Source of the DNA: a virus
UHGV virus genome: UHGV-0038496
Reading direction: 5' to 3' (one strand)
DNA: 64,000 nucleotides
Below the pieces are notes generated by a model. It searched no databases and was not told the DNA's origin. It saw only the letters and a program-made list of their open reading frames with translations. Made by a program: the position numbers and the translations under genes. Positions 6,022-64,000 of this stretch are shown here, piece by piece (the first letter of the stretch is position 1; each line of letters starts with the position of its first letter).

Positions 6022-7009
6022 CCTGGTGTTCAGGGCCGGACGCAACTCCGACCCCCGTTGGTTCCATCCACCGCATCCATGCTCGGCTGCATGTTACCAT
6101 GCAGAGCAGACTATATCACGATCCTGTTTCTCACAGGACCCTTCGCTTTTCGAGCACCATCAGCTTGTGCCCTACTCCCTTTCGGGATAGTCGTTGAACT
6201 ACAATTACCAATCATAATTGTTTGAAATGTAAGTATAAGTTTTCCTTTCCTTGATACTTTTCACTGTACGGTGAGAAACCCCCCACAATCTTGCCACCGC
6301 ACCAACGGATAAGCCTTTTTGTAAATCTTCGCAGATACCAATCACCTTGTGCTCACTTATTCTGTTAGCTGAAGGTATTTCCCTAAAGTGAAACTCCGCA
6401 GAGATATCTGGGTATACTGATCCATTCTTTATACCACTTACAAGGGTTTGATTGACACCGAACATCTGACAGATATCTTTTACCCTTGCACCTTGCTCTA
6501 ATAGCCTGCATATTTCAAGGGCAGTGGCATCATCCAAATACCTGTATTTATTTACATAATCTTTTTTAAGTCCAGTTTCATGGGCGTGGTGTGTGTTTTC
6601 CTCTGGGGTTGTCCACTCAAGGTTCCATGCGGCGTTATTCAACTTATTACCGTCCAAGTGATTTACTTGGGTTTTCACGCTAGGATTATCATTATCAACA
6701 AAAACCTCAGCAACAACTCTGTGAACAAGCACTTGGAACTTTTTGCCGTCCTCACACAGGGAAACCACAGCATAGCCTGTCTTTTTATGCGTAACAGGTT
6801 GAAGGAATTTATTAGAATACAAACTATAAATTCTGCCATCATATGTCACGCAATAGTGTGGGTAACCTAAAAATCCTAAATTCTTCATTTCAAACACTCC
6901 CTACTACAGTTTCGGAAGAATAATTATAGCTGCTGATTATCTGAAAGTCAATCAGATTTTCCAGCAATTAACGAAGTTATTCGACGTGCATTACTGCACG
7001 AAGCCACTA
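6022..7009 (-). mobile_element. group I intron A in terL (contains HNH homing endonuclease gene)
   Basis: Separates two in-frame terL fragments; RNA sense has AACGACUAUCCC and GAUAUAGUCUG (S-element-like) plus CUGCAUGG..ACAUGCAG hairpin; core near-identical to nrdD introns; 5' end approximate. Confidence 0.55.
6205..6897 (-). CDS. HNH homing endonuclease (intron-encoded)
   Basis: 230 aa; HRVVAEVFV...NHLDGNKLNN...NLEW HNH motif; lies inside terL intron A. Confidence 0.7.
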   Translation of the reverse strand: MFEMKNLGFLGYPHYCVTYDGRIYSLYSNKFLQPVTHKKTGYAVVSLCEDGKKFQVLVHRVVAEVFVDNDNPSVKTQVNHLDGNKLNNAAWNLEWTTPEENTHHAHETGLKKDYVNKYRYLDDATALEICRLLEQGARVKDICQMFGVNQTLVSGIKNGSVYPDISAEFHFREIPSANRISEHKVIGICEDLQKGLSVGAVARLWGVSHRTVKSIKERKTYTYISNNYDW

Positions 7010-13716: not shown

Positions 13717-14391
13717 AGGGATAGTAACTTCGTTAGCATTCCCTCTAACTCGTTACTATGTAGTACTAAGCTCGTACTCTCGCTTACTACCGTAAGCTCG
13801 GTACTCACTAAGTACTACCATAAGCAATGTCTTGCTTAATTAATTTATCAATTAATTTTATCAGTACAAAATCAATCAATAAATTAATTAATCAATCCAT
13901 TGATACCACTAAGTTCGTTCCTCACTAAGTGGTATACATGCTGATAGCATTCCCTCTATCAGATGATACTAAGTTCACACTTCGTATCCACTCGTGTTCA
14001 CTAAGTATCATTGATCCATTATTGCTCAAATTTATTTTTTCTTTTCCCACAAATATGGCGCTCCTTTTACCGCTCGCTCGCGCTCGGCGGGTCGCGCCTG
14101 ATCATCGTCTGCTATCAACAAGTGGGCCTGTGGCAACAGAGCTGCCTGAGTTGTGTGGGAAGATCACCGACCGTAAGGGAGGTGCTAATGTGGGGATGAC
14201 GGTGAAAAGCGAAGCTGCCGAGAGGAACCGTCGAATTGTCTGCGCCGCCGCTTCAACCATACCCAGATACCAGAAATCAGTTTTGAGGCCTCTGGTAGCT
14301 TCTGTGGTTAGCTAATAGTGCCTGATGGCTACAGTTGCATTACTAAACTATCAACATCGTTACAGAGCGTTTGAGAGCGTTTAAATTAGTA

Positions 14392-31055: not shown

Positions 31056-31833
31056 AAACTACTATTGCTCATGTAAAACCTATCTAAACGGGGGAACTCT
31101 CTACGGAGAAAATCCCGTGCTAAACGTAACAGAACTCCCGGAGAAAAGGAGTCCTGAAATGAGAAAACAAATTCGTGATTTTGAAGGGTATGAAATTGAC
31201 GAGATGGGAAATGTTTATTGCACCCGCTACGAAAAGGAAAGAATCATCCATCCGTGGGAAGAAATAAACACAGGCTACCTTCTTGTCAGGATACGCAAGA
31301 ACAAGAAAACTGTTTGCCTGAGGGTTCACAGACTTGTTGCTGAAGCGTTTTTACCGAATCCAGACAATTTGCCCTATGTTAAGCATAAGGGTGACAACAA
31401 GAAAGATAACAGCGTATACAATCTTGAGTGGGGTGCTTGCCCAGATAATACCCAGGAAGGTTACGACAACAACTGTTATACTTTTTACACAAGGTGTCAC
31501 GGTGTGAAAGCTACCAACAAACTGACTGGTGAAGTTTTCCACTTTAAGAGTCTGAGATGCTGTGCTGATACTTTAGGGGTGGATAGAAAAAGAATATCTG
31601 CTATCCTGAAGCGTGGAGCACCTAATAACTATGATTACGAGTTCTGTTACGAAATGCCGAACGACTAACCGTGATGAATGTAGCGGTGTAGGGTGCAAGC
31701 CTATGGCACTCCAAAAGATAGGCACACGAAAGTGTGAAGATATAGTCTGATCTGCATGGTGACATGCAGCCGAGCATGGATGCGGTGGATGGAACCAACG
31801 GGGGTAGTGTTGCGAGCTACTCTGAACACAATG
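31056..31833 (+). mobile_element. group I intron 2 in nrdD (HNH endonuclease-containing)
   Basis: Exon 2 ends ...ATGGGT, intron ends ...CACAATG (omega-G), exon 3 begins TGT giving continuous ...SMG/CRSF...; AAGATATAGTCTG and CTGCATGG..ACATGCAG hairpin near 3' end. Confidence 0.6.
31159..31668 (+). CDS. HNH homing endonuclease (intron-encoded)
   Basis: Start at MRKQIRDFEGYEIDEMGNVY after AAAGGAG; VHRLVAEAFLPNP...NLEWG. Confidence 0.65.
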   Translation: MRKQIRDFEGYEIDEMGNVYCTRYEKERIIHPWEEINTGYLLVRIRKNKKTVCLRVHRLVAEAFLPNPDNLPYVKHKGDNKKDNSVYNLEWGACPDNTQEGYDNNCYTFYTRCHGVKATNKLTGEVFHFKSLRCCADTLGVDRKRISAILKRGAPNNYDYEFCYEMPND

Positions 31834-51928: not shown

Positions 51929-52651
51929 GCTCCCTCCGGTCGCGCCATGTTATCGTTGCATAATGTGATTATTGCATTCGCAAATTATTATTTATCTTAT
52001 TTTACTTTATGCAATTTATATATTTTCATTGATTGTAATTTTATTTATTTTATATTTTATTGTATCTCATAATCTAATTATATTACTAATATTATACTAT
52101 ATAGATTATTGAGATACAGAATAATCACCGCCTGAAAGTATATTAATCCCACAGCAGAATAGTCACTGCATGAAATAATGTGGGGTGGGATAGTCACACC
52201 TCGGCATGACTGCCTTGCGGAATAATCACCATATTTACCACACCTGCCAGGTTGTTGAGAATATTTCTCATATGTTAGCTATGCACTAATATTGCATAAT
52301 TAAAACATACCTATCAGATGCATCTTATCGTGACGCTACGTGAAAAATAGAATTTTGCGCCTATAGTTATACCCGATTTTTCAAAAAATGGACTTTATAA
52401 CTCACTGTTTTATAAAGATTTATAGTTGTTGACACAGCCATATAAAATGTGCATCAGCCGAAAAGTGTGAGATACTTCACAAAATGCCCTACATTTGACA
52501 GCCGAAAACTGAAAAAACTTAAAAACTATGTATGCAAATACAGCTATTTTACTGTGTGGTTAATTTTTAGGCATTTTATTTTATGCATTGTTTGAATACC
52601 GGATTCACAGCTTGCCCATGAAGCTACGCTGAATAAATCACTATATTACAG

Positions 52652-58872: not shown

Positions 58873-58933
58873 TTTCTTATTCCCCTTGTTGGTTGATGAT
58901 AGGGCCGGACTTCCGGCCCTGGTTGAAATTGTG

Positions 58934-59164
58934 TTACATGATAGTAAGTTTACGGCCTTTGATCATGATGTAACCGTGTCCAGCATTGCCCCAGATATCA
59001 ACGTAGACGCGGCGCATCCGGCCCTCGAAGTTGATCATCCAGTTAGTCGGTAATTTTTTACCGTAACCGCTTGCAGGCATTTTGGCGTTGACTGGTTTTT
59101 CAATCATGACTACATCAAAAAAGTTTTTATAGTCAAATGTTGCAACAGCTGGCATAAGGTCCAT
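58934..59164 (-). CDS. hypothetical protein
   Basis: 76 aa, AAGGGG RBS. Confidence 0.45.
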   Translation of the reverse strand: MDLMPAVATFDYKNFFDVVMIEKPVNAKMPASGYGKKLPTNWMINFEGRMRRVYVDIWGNAGHGYIMIKGRKLTIM

Positions 59165-59245
59165 GATGTTTCCCCTTCTTACTGTGTGGTTGAGTTCTCT
59201 TTATTGATGATCCACTTTCTCATCGTGGACCATCTAAAAGCTAAC

Positions 59246-59440
59246 TCATGCGGCTATTGCAATGATTCGTTCTGCTGCCTCAACCGCTTCATAGTCCAGA
59301 TTATTGTGGTGCGCTACATCCAGGAGGAAAGTTAGTGCATCTTTATAATCTTCGTAGTCGCAACGATAAGCCTCTACACCTTCAACAAGAATCGCAATTT
59401 TACCAGCTTTTTTCAGGTTTACGATGTTAATGTGTTTCAT
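59246..59440 (-). CDS. hypothetical protein
   Basis: 64 aa, AAGGAG RBS. Confidence 0.45.
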   Translation of the reverse strand: MKHINIVNLKKAGKIAILVEGVEAYRCDYEDYKDALTFLLDVAHHNNLDYEAVEAAERIIAIAA

Positions 59441-59515
59441 GATTTGTCACTCCTTTTAAATTGTTTACTGCTTTCGATTATCAGTATACTTGTTTTTTCT
59501 GATTTGTCAACCTTT

Positions 59516-59743
59516 CTAGACTTCTTCCGGTGCCGCTTTAAAGAATCCTCTAATGATCCGGCCTCCCCTTACACTTCTTGAAAAAATTGCGTCAACCTCG
59601 CGCCTGAATGCCTCTACCCAGATATCGCCCTTACTATCGCTATTCCTAACAATCCAGGCCATACGGTAGACCTTGTTATCGAAATTAATCACACCTTTAG
59701 ATGGTTTAACTCGATTCATGGGGAACTTGATAACGTTGCTCAT
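59516..59743 (-). CDS. hypothetical protein
   Basis: 75 aa, GAGGAAAATAAA-ATG. Confidence 0.45.
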   Translation of the reverse strand: MSNVIKFPMNRVKPSKGVINFDNKVYRMAWIVRNSDSKGDIWVEAFRREVDAIFSRSVRGGRIIRGFFKAAPEEV

Positions 59744-59907
59744 TTTATTTTCCTCGCTTAGTTGTTTATTTTTGTAGTGGGAGGTTTATAACCTCCCTCC
59801 TCTGTGTTTATAATGCTGCCCGTATATGATGTACCAGATGTTTAAAAGCTCGCGCCAGGTAAATTTATCATCTTCGGGCTTTTCTTTATCGTTTTTCATA
59901 CCCAACC

Positions 59908-59994
59908 TCATTTTTTGTTATTCAGACCTTTTAACATTTCTTTAATGAAATCTTCCACCCTTTCATATTCGTTTGCTTTGTAGTAGTCTTTCAT
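59908..59994 (-). CDS. hypothetical small protein
   Basis: 28 aa ORF with the same GAGGAAAATAAA-ATG context as the 59516 gene. Confidence 0.25.
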   Translation of the reverse strand: MKDYYKANEYERVEDFIKEMLKGLNNKK

Positions 59995-60300
59995 TTTATT
60001 TTCCTCGTTTTCTTTCAGCTTCCCCCGGTTTATCCGGTCCTTGTTGCCTCCCTGCATCCTTTCCTTTCAACTTTATTTTACTGCTTTGTGTTACCTTGTC
60101 AACCTTTTTTACTTCTTTCTAGTTTTAGGGCTTTTCGGCTCCCTCGGTCCTTCGGTTAGCTATGCTTCAAGGCTTTTCCTTTACCCTTCTTTTCCCGCTC
60201 CCGGAACTTTCCTTTCTGTTCCCTTTCTTCTCCTTTCGACTATAGAATACCAAACCGGGGGGCCGTGTCAATACCTTTTTCACAACTTTCTTAAAAATTT

Positions 60301-60405
60301 TTACTTCCGCATGTTGCTTAAGATAAAACCAACAACCAGGCAGCAGATAACCACAAAGGCCAGGCCCACAGCGATAAACGGATTCATCAGCATTTCAAGT
60401 AACAT
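60301..60405 (-). CDS. hypothetical small membrane peptide
   Basis: 34 aa hydrophobic ORF after GGAGG. Confidence 0.3.
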   Translation of the reverse strand: MLLEMLMNPFIAVGLAFVVICCLVVGFILSNMRK

Positions 60406-60407
60406 GA

Positions 60408-60617
60408 TCAGGCCTCCAATACCATAATTTCAAAGCGTGCGACGATAGGGCTAACGTCTACGAGGCACATCGGATCGACTACGCGATGGATAACGACTAG
60501 ATGATCATCATGCTTATCGATGTAATAATCCTCGTTATCAATTATTTCGCTTAGGTCATAATAACGGCCTTTCTCATAGCGGCCCCGTGCATCATTGGCA
60601 TAATCACAGTAGACCAT
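60408..60617 (-). CDS. hypothetical protein
   Basis: Start at ATG after AGGAGG (MVYCDYAND...). Confidence 0.45.
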   Translation of the reverse strand: MVYCDYANDARGRYEKGRYYDLSEIIDNEDYYIDKHDDHLVVIHRVVDPMCLVDVSPIVARFEIMVLEA

Positions 60618-60773
60618 TTTGCTTTCCTCCTGCTGTGTTTCTTCTTTCAATTAAAATAATACGCAGATCCTACAAGAAGTAAATAAGGTTTTACCTATTG
60701 ATTTTTGCGTTAGATGTGTTTTACAGGTTGGGGAGTGGCAAACGAAGAAAGGCCCCACCAGGGGGCCTATCGG

Positions 60774-60995
60774 TTAAATTTCGTCTGCTTTCATGCGTTC
60801 ACGCCGTGCTGCATATTTCATTTGCTGGCGTTCACGTTCAAGTAACAGGCGGCGTAAATTACGGTCGTAATAGTTGCGCCACAGTTTACCGAAGCGGCGC
60901 GGCTTGTTCAATTTGTTGTTACGCTGGCGGCGTTCCGGCAGTTCATCAGATAAATGATTGCGTTTAGTGATTTTTTCAAAGTTTACCATGTTCAT
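60774..60995 (-). CDS. hypothetical Arg-rich protein (possible nucleic-acid binding)
   Basis: 73 aa, about 25 percent Arg/Lys; AGGAGC RBS. Confidence 0.45.
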   Translation of the reverse strand: MNMVNFEKITKRNHLSDELPERRQRNNKLNKPRRFGKLWRNYYDRNLRRLLLERERQQMKYAARRERMKADEI

Positions 60996-61009
60996 AATCG
61001 GCGCTCCTG

Positions 61010-61348
61010 TTACTCGTTATCGTCGTTTTCTTCTGCTGCAATATTTGCCGCTACTGCTTTAATAAATTTTTTCGCGTCACCGTTGCGGCCCCACAGGTCA
61101 ACGATTAAAAATCCTGCCTGCTTTATCTTATTCGTGTACTCCAGCAAGTTGTAAGCCGGGATCGGCGACGGCGTTACATATTGTTTCCCGTGTCGGTCCT
61201 GGTACTTGATAACATAATCAGCACCCGGATCAATATCCCACGGATTCACCCGAAAAGCCTGGCACCTGGCGTAATAACTTTGATTTCTTACTTTGTTCCA
61301 GACTACCCCGATTGCAATAAATGTAAGTATGCACGTCACTAGATCCAT
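61010..61348 (-). CDS. membrane-anchored protein
   Basis: Start at MDLVTCILTFIAIGVVW after AAGAGGA; one N-terminal transmembrane helix. Confidence 0.45.
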   Translation of the reverse strand: MDLVTCILTFIAIGVVWNKVRNQSYYARCQAFRVNPWDIDPGADYVIKYQDRHGKQYVTPSPIPAYNLLEYTNKIKQAGFLIVDLWGRNGDAKKFIKAVAANIAAEENDDNE

Positions 61349-61435
61349 AGATTTTTCCTCTTTGCTATTGTGTGGGCATAATGTCACCTCCTCCTGGTTG
61401 GATAGGGGGCCGGACTCCCGGCCCCGCCTGGTATG

Positions 61436-61684
61436 TTATCCTAACATTTTAAAATAGTTGACGTTCAAAATTTTTTCAATATCGTCAACCGCTTTGATAT
61501 GCATGAAAGCAATCAATTTACCATCGATGCGGATAACCGGGCGGCCCAGGTGATAACCTTTAATCATACGCGCTTTTACTTTTCCACCTGCTCCCCCTTC
61601 ACGCCACCAAATGGCTTTTCCGTTGCTGTAATACCAATCAGCTTTTACCAGGTCCACCGCTGCAAAGTTAATTAATTTAGCCAT
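61436..61684 (-). CDS. hypothetical protein
   Basis: 82 aa, GAGAGGAG RBS. Confidence 0.45.
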   Translation of the reverse strand: MAKLINFAAVDLVKADWYYSNGKAIWWREGGAGGKVKARMIKGYHLGRPVIRIDGKLIAFMHIKAVDDIEKILNVNYFKMLG

Positions 61685-61761
61685 TGCGTAACTCCTCTCT
61701 TATTGTGGTTACACTAAATTATCTTTATGGATGGCCCCGCCAGGGCCATCTAAAAGGCAAC

Positions 61762-62100
61762 TTAGTTACGTAACGCTTCCTCTACTTCCTGCAATTCTGC
61801 TTCAAGGTCGGCCAATTCGTCGCACAAATCACAATAGTTTGCGTCATCGCTTACGTCTACGCTGTCTACATAGTCATTCAATCCGCAACGATAAGCAATC
61901 GGATCCAATTCGCGTAAGATTCTAGACGGTAAAAATTCGCAACCGCCTACCACTACCGCACCGCCTTCGTCTAGTACTTCATTGTAGTCATCTTCATAAT
62001 CAGCCGGATCGATTTCAAAATTCTCGATTTTATTGTTCAGTTGTTCGATAGCTGCAACCAGAGCGGCACGACGTGCAATCATTTCGACGTTAGCGTTCAT
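61762..62100 (-). CDS. hypothetical highly acidic protein
   Basis: 112 aa, Asp/Glu-rich; AGAGGAGA RBS. Confidence 0.5.
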   Translation of the reverse strand: MNANVEMIARRAALVAAIEQLNNKIENFEIDPADYEDDYNEVLDEGGAVVVGGCEFLPSRILRELDPIAYRCGLNDYVDSVDVSDDANYCDLCDELADLEAELQEVEEALRN

Positions 62101-62137
62101 AATGTTTTCTCCTCTGTTGTTACTTATTACTGTGGTT

Positions 62138-62166
62138 AGTTTACTTTATTGATGGCCCCGTGTCAA
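62138..62166 (-). promoter_or_regulatory. sigma70-like promoter within inverted-repeat module
   Basis: Minus strand TTGACA-17-TAAACT; -35 flanked by inverted repeat GATGGCC (62151-62157) / GGCCATC (62177-62183). Confidence 0.5.
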
Positions 62167-62198
62167 TACTTTTTGAGGCCATCTAAAAGCAAGCTATT

Positions 62199-62558
62199 TT
62201 ATTTGTATGCTAGTTCCACATAAAACCGCGCCATCAGTTCAAACCATTCTTCAATGTAACGTTCTTTAGTATCTTCTTTAGTTTTTTCATCAATGATCCC
62301 GAACTCACGCAGGCGGTTTAAAATGTCATCGTTGCAAAAATCGATATCAACACCGCTAGGAAGACCAGCCAGCCAGTCAGCCATAGCCTTCACACGATTG
62401 CCATTGAAGCGACGGATATAATAGCCGTCGAAATGCTCAGCTTCAAAGCGTGCTTTCAGTTCCTCAACGTCGTTGTCGTGTTCCATGTCATCAAAGTTCA
62501 AGCTATCAACTACATACTCACGAATTGCGTTAGCCATAGCCTTATTGATGCGTTTCAT
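62199..62558 (-). CDS. hypothetical protein
   Basis: 119 aa, AAGAGGAAAA RBS. Confidence 0.5.
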   Translation of the reverse strand: MKRINKAMANAIREYVVDSLNFDDMEHDNDVEELKARFEAEHFDGYYIRRFNGNRVKAMADWLAGLPSGVDIDFCNDDILNRLREFGIIDEKTKEDTKERYIEEWFELMARFYVELAYK

Positions 62559-62650
62559 AATATTTTCCTCTTTGTGATTTACTAATTACTTCTTTCAGTT
62601 TTAAGTTTACTTATTTTTGCTACCGTGTCAACTAATTTTTTGAATTTATT

Positions 62651-62743
62651 TTACATCATTACACGAAAGACCAACATAACCAGGTAGACCAGTACCATAA
62701 TCATAACATCGCGGCGGATCTGATAGCGAGAATAATTTTTCAT
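62651..62743 (-). CDS. hypothetical small membrane peptide
   Basis: 30 aa ORF after GAAGGGGAAA. Confidence 0.3.
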   Translation of the reverse strand: MKNYSRYQIRRDVMIMVLVYLVMLVFRVMM

Positions 62744-62774
62744 GATTGTTTCCCCTTCGTTGTGTGGATTTTTA

Positions 62775-62803
62775 GGTTACTTTATAGATGGCCCGGTGTC
62801 AAT
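62775..62803 (-). promoter_or_regulatory. sigma70-like promoter within inverted-repeat module
   Basis: Minus strand TTGACA-17-TAACCT; inverted repeat GATGGCC (62788-62794) / GGCCATC (62810-62816) around -35. Confidence 0.45.
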
Positions 62804-62825
62804 ATCCAGGCCATCGAAAAACAAC

Positions 62826-63236
62826 CTATAAGCTCATATAGTCACGATGTGCAATCATCCATGCAGCGTCTTTGTTTTCACAATAGCCGACGTGGCGAGA
62901 CTCCCCATCATAACGATAGATAACCTGGTAAACTGCTTCCCCTCTAAGGTCCAGGACGTGGCGCACTTCGTAACGTTTGCAACGTTTAACTTGTGCGATA
63001 CGTGCCCCGAAAATTAGTTTTACCAGTTCTTTCCAATGGCGACGGGCATCAGTTAAAGACACCACACTAAACCATGCTTGCCGCTCGCCATCAGCATTAA
63101 AAGCGCGAACATGGTAGCAACCGTGGGCCTTAAACAGATCCACCATTTCACGATCCCGCCCCTCTACCATTTGAACATATCCGCAAGCTAAAGCGAACGC
63201 AGTTAAACCATTTGCATTACGGAAAGTAGTTTTCAT
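62826..63236 (-). CDS. hypothetical protein
   Basis: 136 aa, CAGGAGAAAGG RBS; Cys/His-containing. Confidence 0.5.
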   Translation of the reverse strand: MKTTFRNANGLTAFALACGYVQMVEGRDREMVDLFKAHGCYHVRAFNADGERQAWFSVVSLTDARRHWKELVKLIFGARIAQVKRCKRYEVRHVLDLRGEAVYQVIYRYDGESRHVGYCENKDAAWMIAHRDYMSL

Positions 63237-63315
63237 GATCCTTTCTCCTGTGTTTTATTAATCTCGTTTACTGCTTTCATTGTTAAGTATACTTGTTTTT
63301 TATCGCCTGTCAACT

Positions 63316-63426
63316 CTATTTTTCATCTTTTTTAAAGAAATCGATCAGGCCTTTGATAACTGCCGCCAGGTGCAAGCCCAGCAAAAAGAAGGCATAGCCT
63401 ACAATGATTGCCGCGATAATGTTCAT
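63316..63426 (-). CDS. hypothetical small membrane peptide
   Basis: 36 aa ORF after CAGGAGG. Confidence 0.3.
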   Translation of the reverse strand: MNIIAAIIVGYAFFLLGLHLAAVIKGLIDFFKKDEK

Positions 63427-63500
63427 AATGTTGCCTCCTGTTGTGTGAATAGTAACTTTATTCATGGGGCCGTTGCTACAGCCCCAGGGTAAAGCGGCTA

Positions 63501-63746
63501 TTAGTGCGGCATTCCTACCATAGCGGCGCGGATGTTAGTTTTATTGTAAGGCACTCCATCAGGCGTATGAGTGATCCCCTCTTCTTTCAAGCGGTAAACC
63601 ATTAAATCAGCTGCCGCGTCTTTATTGCCACACTCATTAATCAGGCCCATCGCTAAAAACCATAAACCTTCGTCATTGTTGATCCAAAGTGCGACGTTCC
63701 ATTGATTGTAATTTTTCCAACCGTTATAACCTTTATTGCCTTTCAT
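63501..63746 (-). CDS. hypothetical protein
   Basis: 81 aa, AAGAGGA RBS, Trp/Asn-rich. Confidence 0.45.
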   Translation of the reverse strand: MKGNKGYNGWKNYNQWNVALWINNDEGLWFLAMGLINECGNKDAAADLMVYRLKEEGITHTPDGVPYNKTNIRAAMVGMPH

Positions 63747-63802
63747 AATTTTATCCTCTTTAGTTTTTGCCTCTGGGGAAATTTCTTTCCCTTTCGGTTT
63801 AT

Positions 63803-63830
63803 ATACTACATCTTTATTCTACCGTGTCAA
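63803..63830 (-). promoter_or_regulatory. sigma70-like promoter
   Basis: Minus strand TTGACA-16-TAGTAT; -35 overlaps stop codon of upstream partial gene. Confidence 0.45.
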
Positions 63831-64000
63831 CATTTTTTAAAGAATTTTTCTACCGTGATATCTTTCCCAGCAGGTTTAGCCACTTTCAGAATTTTATCAT
63901 GCACCGGGCGCCCGAAAGAATAAGCGCCATACACAGTAAGCCAATAATCCCCGTTAGGCTGTACTATTACCGCTGCATATGGTACGCCTTTCTCGTTATC
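63827..64000 (-). CDS. hypothetical protein, 5' end beyond window
   Basis: Open frame from window edge to TGA at 63827-63829; not in track because partial. Confidence 0.35.
   Translation of the reverse strand, partial: DNEKGVPYAAVIVQPNGDYWLTVYGAYSFGRPVHDKILKVAKPAGKDITVEKFFKKC

Follow-up and report, generated by a model that had tools for sequence, protein, structure and literature searches.

An intercistronic hairpin cassette with a nested sigma-70 promoter in the early region of a Vequintavirinae lineage

The early region of the phage DNA analyzed here (a stretch of 64,000 nucleotides, hereafter the window) carries four copies of a cassette of ~55–65 bp, each of which occupies the space between two early genes of like orientation and encodes a two-part 21-bp hairpin that begins at the stop codon of the upstream gene. 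The hairpin, not the promoter, is the conserved unit of this cassette. In the reading that best accommodates the data, to which we assign a probability of roughly 0.5, the cassette is an intercistronic processing or 3'-stabilizing hairpin with a nested sigma-70 promoter, doubling as a recombination joint. That it acts post-transcriptionally, as a sense-strand RNA element with a promoter nested in it, is held with much more confidence than cleavage of the hairpin itself by RNase III. The cassette is a variant of known phage promoter/stem-loop cassettes rather than a new kind of regulation.

The cassette family and its genomic setting

The portal protein encoded in the window is 82% identical to the portal of rV5/FV3-type coliphages; the window therefore represents a distinct Vequintavirinae lineage. 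Its minus strand at 52–64 kb is densely packed with small genes, all of them preceded by sigma-70 promoter-like sites, and the eight ORFs that flank the cassettes all have matches to phage protein families whose function is unknown. Almost no DNA similarity to sequenced phages is seen in this part of the early region (query 58900–64000). The sole DNA match to this query in about 20 rV5-like genomes is a segment of 38 nt with 95% identity at 62129–62166, which falls exactly on the module at 62138–62190 (cassette W1 below).

That module, described in the initial annotation as a minus-strand early promoter whose -35 hexamer sits inside an inverted repeat, is present where it was placed and reads gcttttaGATGGCC-tcaaaaagtaTTGACAcgg-GGCCATCaataaagTAAACT. 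The perfect 7-bp inverted repeat GATGGCC/GGCCATC is likewise genuine, occurring three times in the window (61730–61750, 62151–62183, and 62787–62815) against 0.00 expected from 100 shuffles; CCATCNATAAAG, with at most one mismatch allowed, gave 7 matches against 1.2 expected. A generic sliding-window scan of minimum free energy (MFE) proved too unspecific and was dropped, as was a loose sequence-free two-stem descriptor (78 matches vs. ~54 in shuffles), and because neither was sufficiently specific a covariance model built from seven copies was adopted. This model recovered exactly four full-length cassettes in the 64-kb window (62771–62830, 62135–62198, 61714–61765, and 59190–59249), with scores of 61.6–68.3 bits and E-values of 1e-11 to 1e-13. 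All four lie on the minus strand, which is the gene-sense strand, at 59.2–62.8 kb; their antisense strands score only 29–31 bits, ~35 bits below sense. Phage slur16, whose genome is complete, likewise has four cassettes, each in the sense orientation within its array of small early genes. Each genome holds ~4 cassettes, all inside ~4.5 kb. Searches with the covariance models of Rfam 15 gave no match at the cassettes at E-values up to 1. The features of the array are as follows.

58934–63746, minus strand: array of small early ORFs split by cassettes, from the ORF list and protein-family matches
63501–63746, 62826–63236, 62651–62743, 62199–62558, minus strand: array ORFs, first part
61762–62100, 61436–61684, 59246–59440, 58934–59164, minus strand: array ORFs, second part
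63448–63502, minus strand: W5, a tentative divergent variant; fold -23.9 kcal/mol, z -4.2
62771–62830, minus strand: cassette W2; 68.3 bits, fold -26.3 kcal/mol, z -6.0
62828–62826, minus strand: stop codon TAG at W2, within the 5' strand of the lower stem
62815–62806 pairing with 62796–62787, minus strand: W2 upper stem
62802–62797, minus strand: W2 -35 hexamer TTGACA, at the 3' edge of the loop
62779–62774, minus strand: W2 weak -10 hexamer TAACCT, in the 3' strand of the lower stem
62743, minus strand: ATG downstream of W2
62135–62198, minus strand: cassette W1; 64.9 bits, fold -21.6 kcal/mol, z -5.4
62201–62199 and 62100, minus strand: stop codon of the ORF upstream of W1 and ATG of the ORF downstream
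62196–62186 and 62147–62137, minus strand: W1 lower stem, 5' and 3' strands
62185–62184 and 62150–62148, minus strand: W1 internal loop, 5' and 3' sides
62183–62175 and 62159–62151, minus strand: W1 upper stem, 5' and 3' arms
62174–62160, minus strand: W1 apical loop, containing the -35 hexamer TTGACA at 62166–62161
62143–62138, minus strand: W1 -10 hexamer TAAACT, inside the 3' strand of the lower stem
61714–61765, minus strand: cassette W3, promoterless; 63.0 bits, fold -23.5 kcal/mol
61764–61762 and 61684, minus strand: stop codon TAA in the W3 lower stem, and downstream ATG
59190–59249, minus strand: cassette W4, promoterless; 61.6 bits, fold -25.5 kcal/mol, z -6.2
59248–59246 and 59164, minus strand: stop codon TGA in the W4 lower stem, and downstream ATG

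Each hairpin consists of a lower stem of 10–11 bp, an internal loop of 2/3 nt, an upper stem of 9–10 bp, and an apical loop of 3–16 nt. The upper stem is GAUGGCCNN/NNGGCCAUC, U·G pairs included; the internal loop is asymmetric, with U-A/C on the 5' side against N-A-U on the 3' side. Within the lower stem a T-tract pairs with AAAG, and the -10 hexamer pairs with its complement just after or overlapping the upstream stop codon. Stop codons (62828–62826, 62201–62199, 61764–61762, and 59248–59246) lie within or next to the first 5 nt of each of the four window hairpins, and the downstream ATG follows each hairpin by 26–35 nt. The inverted repeat does flank the -35 hexamer in two window copies, as the initial annotation had it, yet it is merely the core of a much longer helix: G·U pairs extend the upper stem to 9–10 bp, and the flanks add a lower stem of 11 bp. 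The 8–10 nt that had been given as the distance between the 7-bp arms correspond to actual spacings of 19, 15, and 7 nt.

All copies share one common shape on the sense strand (-21.6 to -26.3 kcal/mol, z -3.9 to -6.2), and antisense folds are worse, as in one slur16 copy with -8.1 vs. -22.4 kcal/mol for sense. Conservation is centered on a core made up of the small internal loop and the base pairs on both its sides; the apical loop and the outer part of the lower stem are freely variable and co-vary. In W2 the lower stem is fully paired over 11 bp upon folding. W3 reads GATGGCCCT-ggc-GGGGCCATC, with a loop of 3 nt and no -35 hexamer, and contains a -10-like GATAAT/ATAATT; its subtype, ATAAAGATAATTTA, is also found in slur16, where it precedes a different gene. 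W4 reads GATGGTCCAC-gatgagaaa-GTGGATCATC and has one G·U pair, which forms on the sense strand only. W5 lies directly after the stop codon of ORF 63501–63746 and keeps the flanks GCTTTA ... AATAAAG and the two-part fold, but has another upper stem (TGGGGCTGT/ACGGCCCCA) and lacks a -35 hexamer; it is placed in the family tentatively, since the covariance model gives it only 14.3 bits (E 0.4).

The family is narrowly distributed. A BLAST search of all 50,697 phage records placed the cassette in Vequintavirus (121 records, ~3 copies each) and in the window's own lineage only; neither these records nor loci L017–L023, more distant loci that bear 48–63% identical homologs of a flanking gene, yielded a cassette beyond those two groups. 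Vequintavirus carriers include the BASEL phages EmilHeitz and CarlMeissner. Four further candidates (L005–L007 and L012) were rejected as chance matches to the flank pattern, with AT-rich spacers of 38 nt and no helix. Cassette modules are absent from the 33 predicted promoters and 20 terminators of the rV5 paper (PMC3606486), and no such features are annotated in the slur16 record. As a side observation, the "Campylobacter phage" records A13b, A140–A142, C2, C7, C12, and C14 carry the cassette together with rV5-like sequence in genomes of 135–143 kb; they look like Escherichia Vequintavirus genomes filed under a Campylobacter host label.

Covariation, strand bias, and the nested promoter

Copies for alignment were collected by a flank-only pattern scan of viral contigs and by a protein-anchored scan, which together gave two close relatives of the window (138,984 and 140,597 bp, ~87% identical) and further rV5-like contigs. 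The covariation set comprised 22 distinct copies from the window phage, the two close relatives, and rV5-type phages. In these, 95.0% of pair cells are paired, against 32–53% when the partners are slid by 1–3 columns; changes on both sides occur in 8 of the 21 pairs (37 cells); and covariation scores 0.334, a value that none of 500 shuffles (0.172 ± 0.015) reached, though these counts overstate independence because the alignment was fitted to a covariance model, which favors structure, and many copies are related by descent. On the sense strand the alignment holds 58 G·U cells and 13 A·C cells. This imbalance indicates that the sense-strand RNA has been selected, and not a symmetric DNA site, whether palindrome or cruciform.

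Individual orthologs illustrate the same point. The W4 ortholog in locus L013 shows a compensatory change from A-U to G-C (CCAC/GTGG to CCGC/GCGG), and an ortholog change converts TAAACT/AGTTTA to TAAATT/AATTTA. All six positions of the -10 hexamer are paired, and four of them co-vary. The copy at L016:1905 has an entirely different upper stem (AAGCCCCCU/GGGGGGCUU) and keeps the flanks, the 2/3 internal loop, the lower-stem logic, and the -35 hexamer in the loop; the lower-stem pairing TATGAT/AGTC-TA occurs in this variant with the replaced upper stem. W5, too, retains the two-part architecture with a replaced upper stem, but without a -35 hexamer.

The initial annotation counted at least three promoters of this design; TTGACA is found in only two of the four window copies (62166 and 62802) and in about half of the ~26 copies examined, and the supposed degenerate promoters near 61740 and 59220 turned out to be well-conserved hairpins without any -35 hexamer. 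W3 and W4 are not promoters by the usual criteria. Nor is the inverted repeat a general early-promoter design, as 12 or more further strong promoters on the minus strand at 52–64 kb lack it. Every promoter-bearing copy checked has its TTGACA at the 3' edge of the apical loop; the spacer to the -10 hexamer, made of the 3' arm, the internal loop, and AAAG, is 17–18 nt whatever the length of the loop (4–16 nt), and the -10 hexamer itself is base-paired within the 3' strand of the lower stem.

Among the window cassettes a sigma-70 scan accepts only the copy at 62166 (W1), with 10 of 12 consensus positions and a spacer of 17. The orthologs of W1 keep TTGACAC although the rest of the loop has been rewritten in three different ways, and three orthologs with otherwise rewritten loops retain TTGACA. 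This retention, together with the constant position of the -35 hexamer and the constant spacer, provides good evidence that the nested promoter at 62166–62138 is functional, as judged from sequence. The promoter at 62802–62774 (-10 TAACCT) is the weaker of the two; it was missed by the promoter scan because its -10 hexamer matches the consensus at only 3 of 6 positions.

Two other promoter types were considered and rejected: a T4 MotA-box reading of TGCTTTTA, for which the distance from the -10 hexamer is wrong, and an N4-type DNA hairpin promoter, the promoters here being of sigma-70 type and the slur16 annotation tables listing no virion RNA polymerase. The predominant early-promoter class of the window is hairpin-less and carries a YGAAAG box 5–8 nt past the -10 hexamer (TTGACA-N16/17-TAnnnT-N-GAAAG), with eight distinct minus-strand sites (-35 positions 63830, 63313, 62631, 60271, 60102, 59510, 56701, and 11573) against 0.01 expected; three of these promoters share the leader GAAAGMAGTAA. 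Hairpin-nested promoters have no YGAAAG box and are followed by AACCACA instead. On the minus strand of slur16 locus L001, several hairpin-less early promoters directly precede a short GC stem-loop, located at the transcript's predicted 5' end (e.g., GGCGGGAAA-N-TCCCGCC), and a similar one is found in the window at ~63775–63792.

Candidate functions of the hairpin

As part of a read-through early mRNA, the cassette folds into the two-part 21-bp hairpin, which, in the preferred processing or 3'-stabilizing reading, host RNase III would most likely cut at the internal loop; the cut would leave a stable hairpin at the 3' end of the upstream mRNA and would release the downstream cistron. In about half of the copies the DNA of the hairpin also holds a sigma-70 promoter, and since its transcripts would start just past the hairpin, they would not carry it. 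On the same reading the cassettes, with several near-identical copies no more than a few kb apart, also act as recombination joints through which the small genes between them are deleted or exchanged. Literature searches returned no cleavage, transcript-end, or expression data for rV5-like phages, and nothing relevant on transcript mapping or on elements like those of T4-like phages (below) in Vequintavirinae.

The five early RNase III sites of phage T7 (R0.3, R0.5, R1, R1.1, and R1.3) were folded and used as a comparison set. Like the cassettes, they are paralogous hairpins between cistrons, in which the lower stem co-varies, the internal loop is small and asymmetric, the upper stem has 9–10 bp, the apical loop varies, and conservation is centered on the internal loop; in both, the hairpin directly follows a stop codon, which in R0.5 lies inside the lower stem. 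T7 promoters also adjoin several of the RNase III sites within the same short spacers. However, the T7 sites have no sequence homology to the cassette, their internal loops are ~4/5 nt as opposed to 2/3 nt, and the cassette promoter is nested inside the DNA of the hairpin, its own transcripts lacking the hairpin; cleavage of the cassette is a prediction.

[quoted passage not shown] The cassette, with its 11-bp lower and 10-bp upper stems stacked across the 2/3-nt loop, reaches this length. Its upper stem of 9–10 bp plus one loop position is borderline with respect to the minimum of 11 bp between scissile bond and apical loop (PMC1540722), and the internal loop is present and conserved. The pair equivalent to pb2, where the rule admits no G-C within a proximal box otherwise rich in A-U, is A-U or U-A in either register. 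At upper-stem pairs 8–9, where a UA/UG distal box is called for, U·G occurs in 13 of 22 copies and U-A in 10 of 22. Against the processing reading, the helix fits the E. coli box rules only partly: a G-C pair adjoins the internal loop, and the order of the distal-box pairs differs from that in R1.1. This partial fit to the proximal- and distal-box rules is the reason why we put cleavage of the cassette hairpin itself by RNase III at somewhat short of an even chance. Additionally, the confinement of ~4 copies per genome to ~4.5 kb makes local spread of the cassette look likelier than a genome-wide processing strategy, and a protein that recognizes GAUGG/CCAUC might instead account for the strict conservation of this sequence.

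A more elaborate form of the processing reading, in which the end of a reading frame, a cleavage site for RNase III or a phage factor, and a promoter are overlaid within the same 60 bp, is improbable. Under it, the downstream 5' end made by the cut would lie within ~15 nt of the start of the nested promoter, the leader of the downstream gene would be almost identical in read-through and de novo transcripts, and the -10 hexamer would be under joint constraint as sigma-70 DNA and as base-pairing RNA.

An RNA hairpin that couples termination of the upstream gene to initiation of the next had also been envisaged in the initial annotation. The hairpin at the end of the upstream gene is borne out by its start at the stop codon, its covariation, and the sigma-70 promoter nested in some copies, but intrinsic termination is unlikely. 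The 3' flank of the stem is AAUAAAG or (N)AUAAAG followed by TAAACT, with no U-tract; the T-tract is on the 5' side, paired with AAAG. A terminator scan did not detect the cassettes, though it found U-tract terminators in the same array (60768, 57600, and 52683). Since W3, W4, and W5 are followed by genes that lack their own promoters, these promoterless copies, which stand between co-directional genes, must be read through. The absent 3' U-tract, the negative scan, and the promoterless copies together argue against intrinsic termination, and a Rho-independent terminator, defined by a G+C-rich hairpin with a U-tract, was rejected.

Among the closest known elements are the PeSLs, promoter-early stem-loop cassettes of the T4-like phages RB49, phi1, PST, and nt-1 (PMC2839356, PMC4122927). 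Like the cassettes described here, PeSLs recur in the intergenic spaces of arrays of small early genes whose function is unknown, have G·T pairs in their stems, bound indels between relatives, and combine a promoter, a stable stem-loop overlapping promoter elements, and a joint for gene shuffling. Several features set them apart: the phages here are Vequintavirinae rather than T4-like; the cassette has one fixed architecture, whereas PeSLs show five variable placements; its helix is two-part and 21 bp long with an internal loop, in contrast to the short polyG/polyC stem of PeSLs; its stem encloses the -35 hexamer and includes the whole -10 hexamer; a sigma-70 promoter is present in about half of its copies as opposed to every PeSL; and only ~4 copies occur per genome. 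Selection at the RNA level is indicated by covariation for the cassettes, an analysis not done for PeSLs. PeSLs are further characterized by reduced downstream expression and by mini-circle formation.

By analogy, the hairpin could be the terminator half of a composite cassette, a PeSL-type attenuator that stops or reduces transcription from upstream so that each gene is mainly self-promoted. The cassette hairpins are very stable, and the stem-loops of RB49 and phi1, which begin at the upstream stop codon and overlap the -35 or -10 hexamers, cut lacZ expression about as much as rrnB T1 does (PMC2839356). Promoter-coupled terminators whose stem-loop supplies the -35 hexamer have been reported as common in bacteria (bioRxiv 10.64898/2026.08.19.745784); as in the cassette, one stretch of DNA is both the end of a unit and the next promoter, with the -35 hexamer supplied or held by the stem-loop DNA. 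In those elements (Fletcher et al.) the T-tract is the promoter spacer, and transcripts end 8–11 bp before the next start (bioRxiv 10.64898/2026.08.19.745784). The cassette segment between stem and -10 hexamer, in contrast, is AAUAAAG, without the defining U-tract, and its spacer is GGCCATCNATAAAG; classification as a promoter-coupled terminator was therefore rejected. Against attenuation also stand the T-tract placed 5' of the stem and paired with AAAG, the canonical terminators that the scan finds nearby and at none of the cassettes, and the genes behind W3, W4, and W5, which would stay unexpressed. We consider an attenuator unlikely.

Less probable still, and doubtful on present evidence, is an RNA operator, in which an early phage protein would bind the internal loop and adjacent pairs (UUU-UA-GAUGG / CCAUC-NAU-AAAG) and thereby control the stability or translation of neighboring cistrons or modify passing RNA polymerase. 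The sequence itself is invariant around the internal loop across lineages otherwise without detectable DNA similarity, and the family is restricted to one small gene neighborhood, both of which speak for such an operator. However, W5 and L016:1905 keep the architecture although their upper stems are completely different, the flanking proteins yielded no RNA-binding domain, and the T7 RNase III sites conserve their core likewise without a dedicated protein. An element of the lambda nut/boxB type was considered separately and rejected, the apical loop not being conserved.

Gene shuffling and further observations

Comparison of contig L009 with slur16 shows that exactly the interval between two slur16 cassettes (S1–S2), ~575–625 bp, is missing in L009. 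The flanking alignments overlap by 49 nt, which are the cassette itself, and the junction thus lies inside the cassette. The cassette subtype ATAAAGATAATTTA also stands before different genes in the window and in slur16. Indels at hairpin-less promoters were observed as well: L013 5192–5437 is a ~245-bp insertion relative to the window at ~63306–63323, and a ~290-bp segment of slur16 (6706–6999) is missing in L009. Since indels between close relatives also occur at hairpin-less promoters, gene shuffling is not limited to hairpin cassettes.

The deletion bounded by cassettes, the recurrence of the same subtypes before different genes, and the 38-nt match that constitutes the only DNA similarity to ~20 rV5-like genomes would all be expected if the cassette were merely a recombination or mobile repeat, maintained by gene conversion and promoter-driven spread, whose hairpin has no function in RNA. 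Gene conversion does not explain the compensatory changes, the sense-strand bias of 58:13 in G·U pairs, or a fold kept despite replacement of the stem, and this account is very unlikely. The remaining alternative, a DNA palindrome that would act as the site of a dimeric regulator (or as a cruciform) to switch the embedded early promoter, draws on the perfect 7-bp inverted repeat that brackets the -35 hexamer in two window copies and is scarcely credible, having already been largely refuted by half-site spacing that varies from 3 to 16 nt, by the promoterless half of the copies, by strand-asymmetric mismatches (G·U 58 vs. A·C 13), and by a co-varying helix that reaches far past the palindrome. 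The same variable spacing, promoterless half, and strand bias, along with the poorer antisense fold, tell against the regulator-binding DNA site flanking the -35 hexamer that had originally been suggested; a palindromic operator for a dimeric protein was rejected in view of the loop of 3–16 nt and the 58:13 ratio, where fixed spacing and symmetric conservation would be expected.

If the preferred reading is true, rV5-type phages, which are widely used candidates for therapy and biocontrol, process or stabilize their early polycistronic mRNAs by means of a compact hairpin that houses a promoter, and the same hairpin serves as a cut-and-paste joint for accessory genes. The PeSL idea would thereby extend past T4-like phages. 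The most attractive feature of the cassette is the clear example it gives of co-evolution between a DNA hexamer, the -10, and its pairing partner in the RNA. For annotation, cassettes should not be labeled as terminators, and they mark likely breakpoints of gene shuffling.

Several other features of the window were recorded. A purine-rich (GA) stretch of ~250 nt on the minus strand at 60040–60250, downstream of the strong promoters at 60271 and 60102, contains no convincing ORF and has no Rfam match; it may encode one or more non-coding early RNAs. At 52385–52440 on the plus strand, opposite to the early array and at its far end, a short hairpin is followed by ATAAAGATTTATAGTTGTTGAC and is conserved with slur16 (L002:2929–2990); it could represent a divergent promoter region. 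The strand-switch region near 12–14 kb contains, at 13825–13902, an AT-rich palindrome of 26 bp (counting G·T pairs), TTAATTAATTTATTGATTGATTTTGT-actg-ATAAAATTAATTGATAAATTAATTAA, and a long poly-G/poly-C hairpin, GGGGGAGGGGGGA-ccc-TCTCCCCTTTCTT, adjoins structural genes at 519–568. The plus-strand ORF at 31756–32808 matches only the C-terminal half of the model for anaerobic ribonucleotide reductase (NrdD), and this half-length match suggests a split nrdD of the kind present in slur16; there the two halves are separated by an HNH homing endonuclease.
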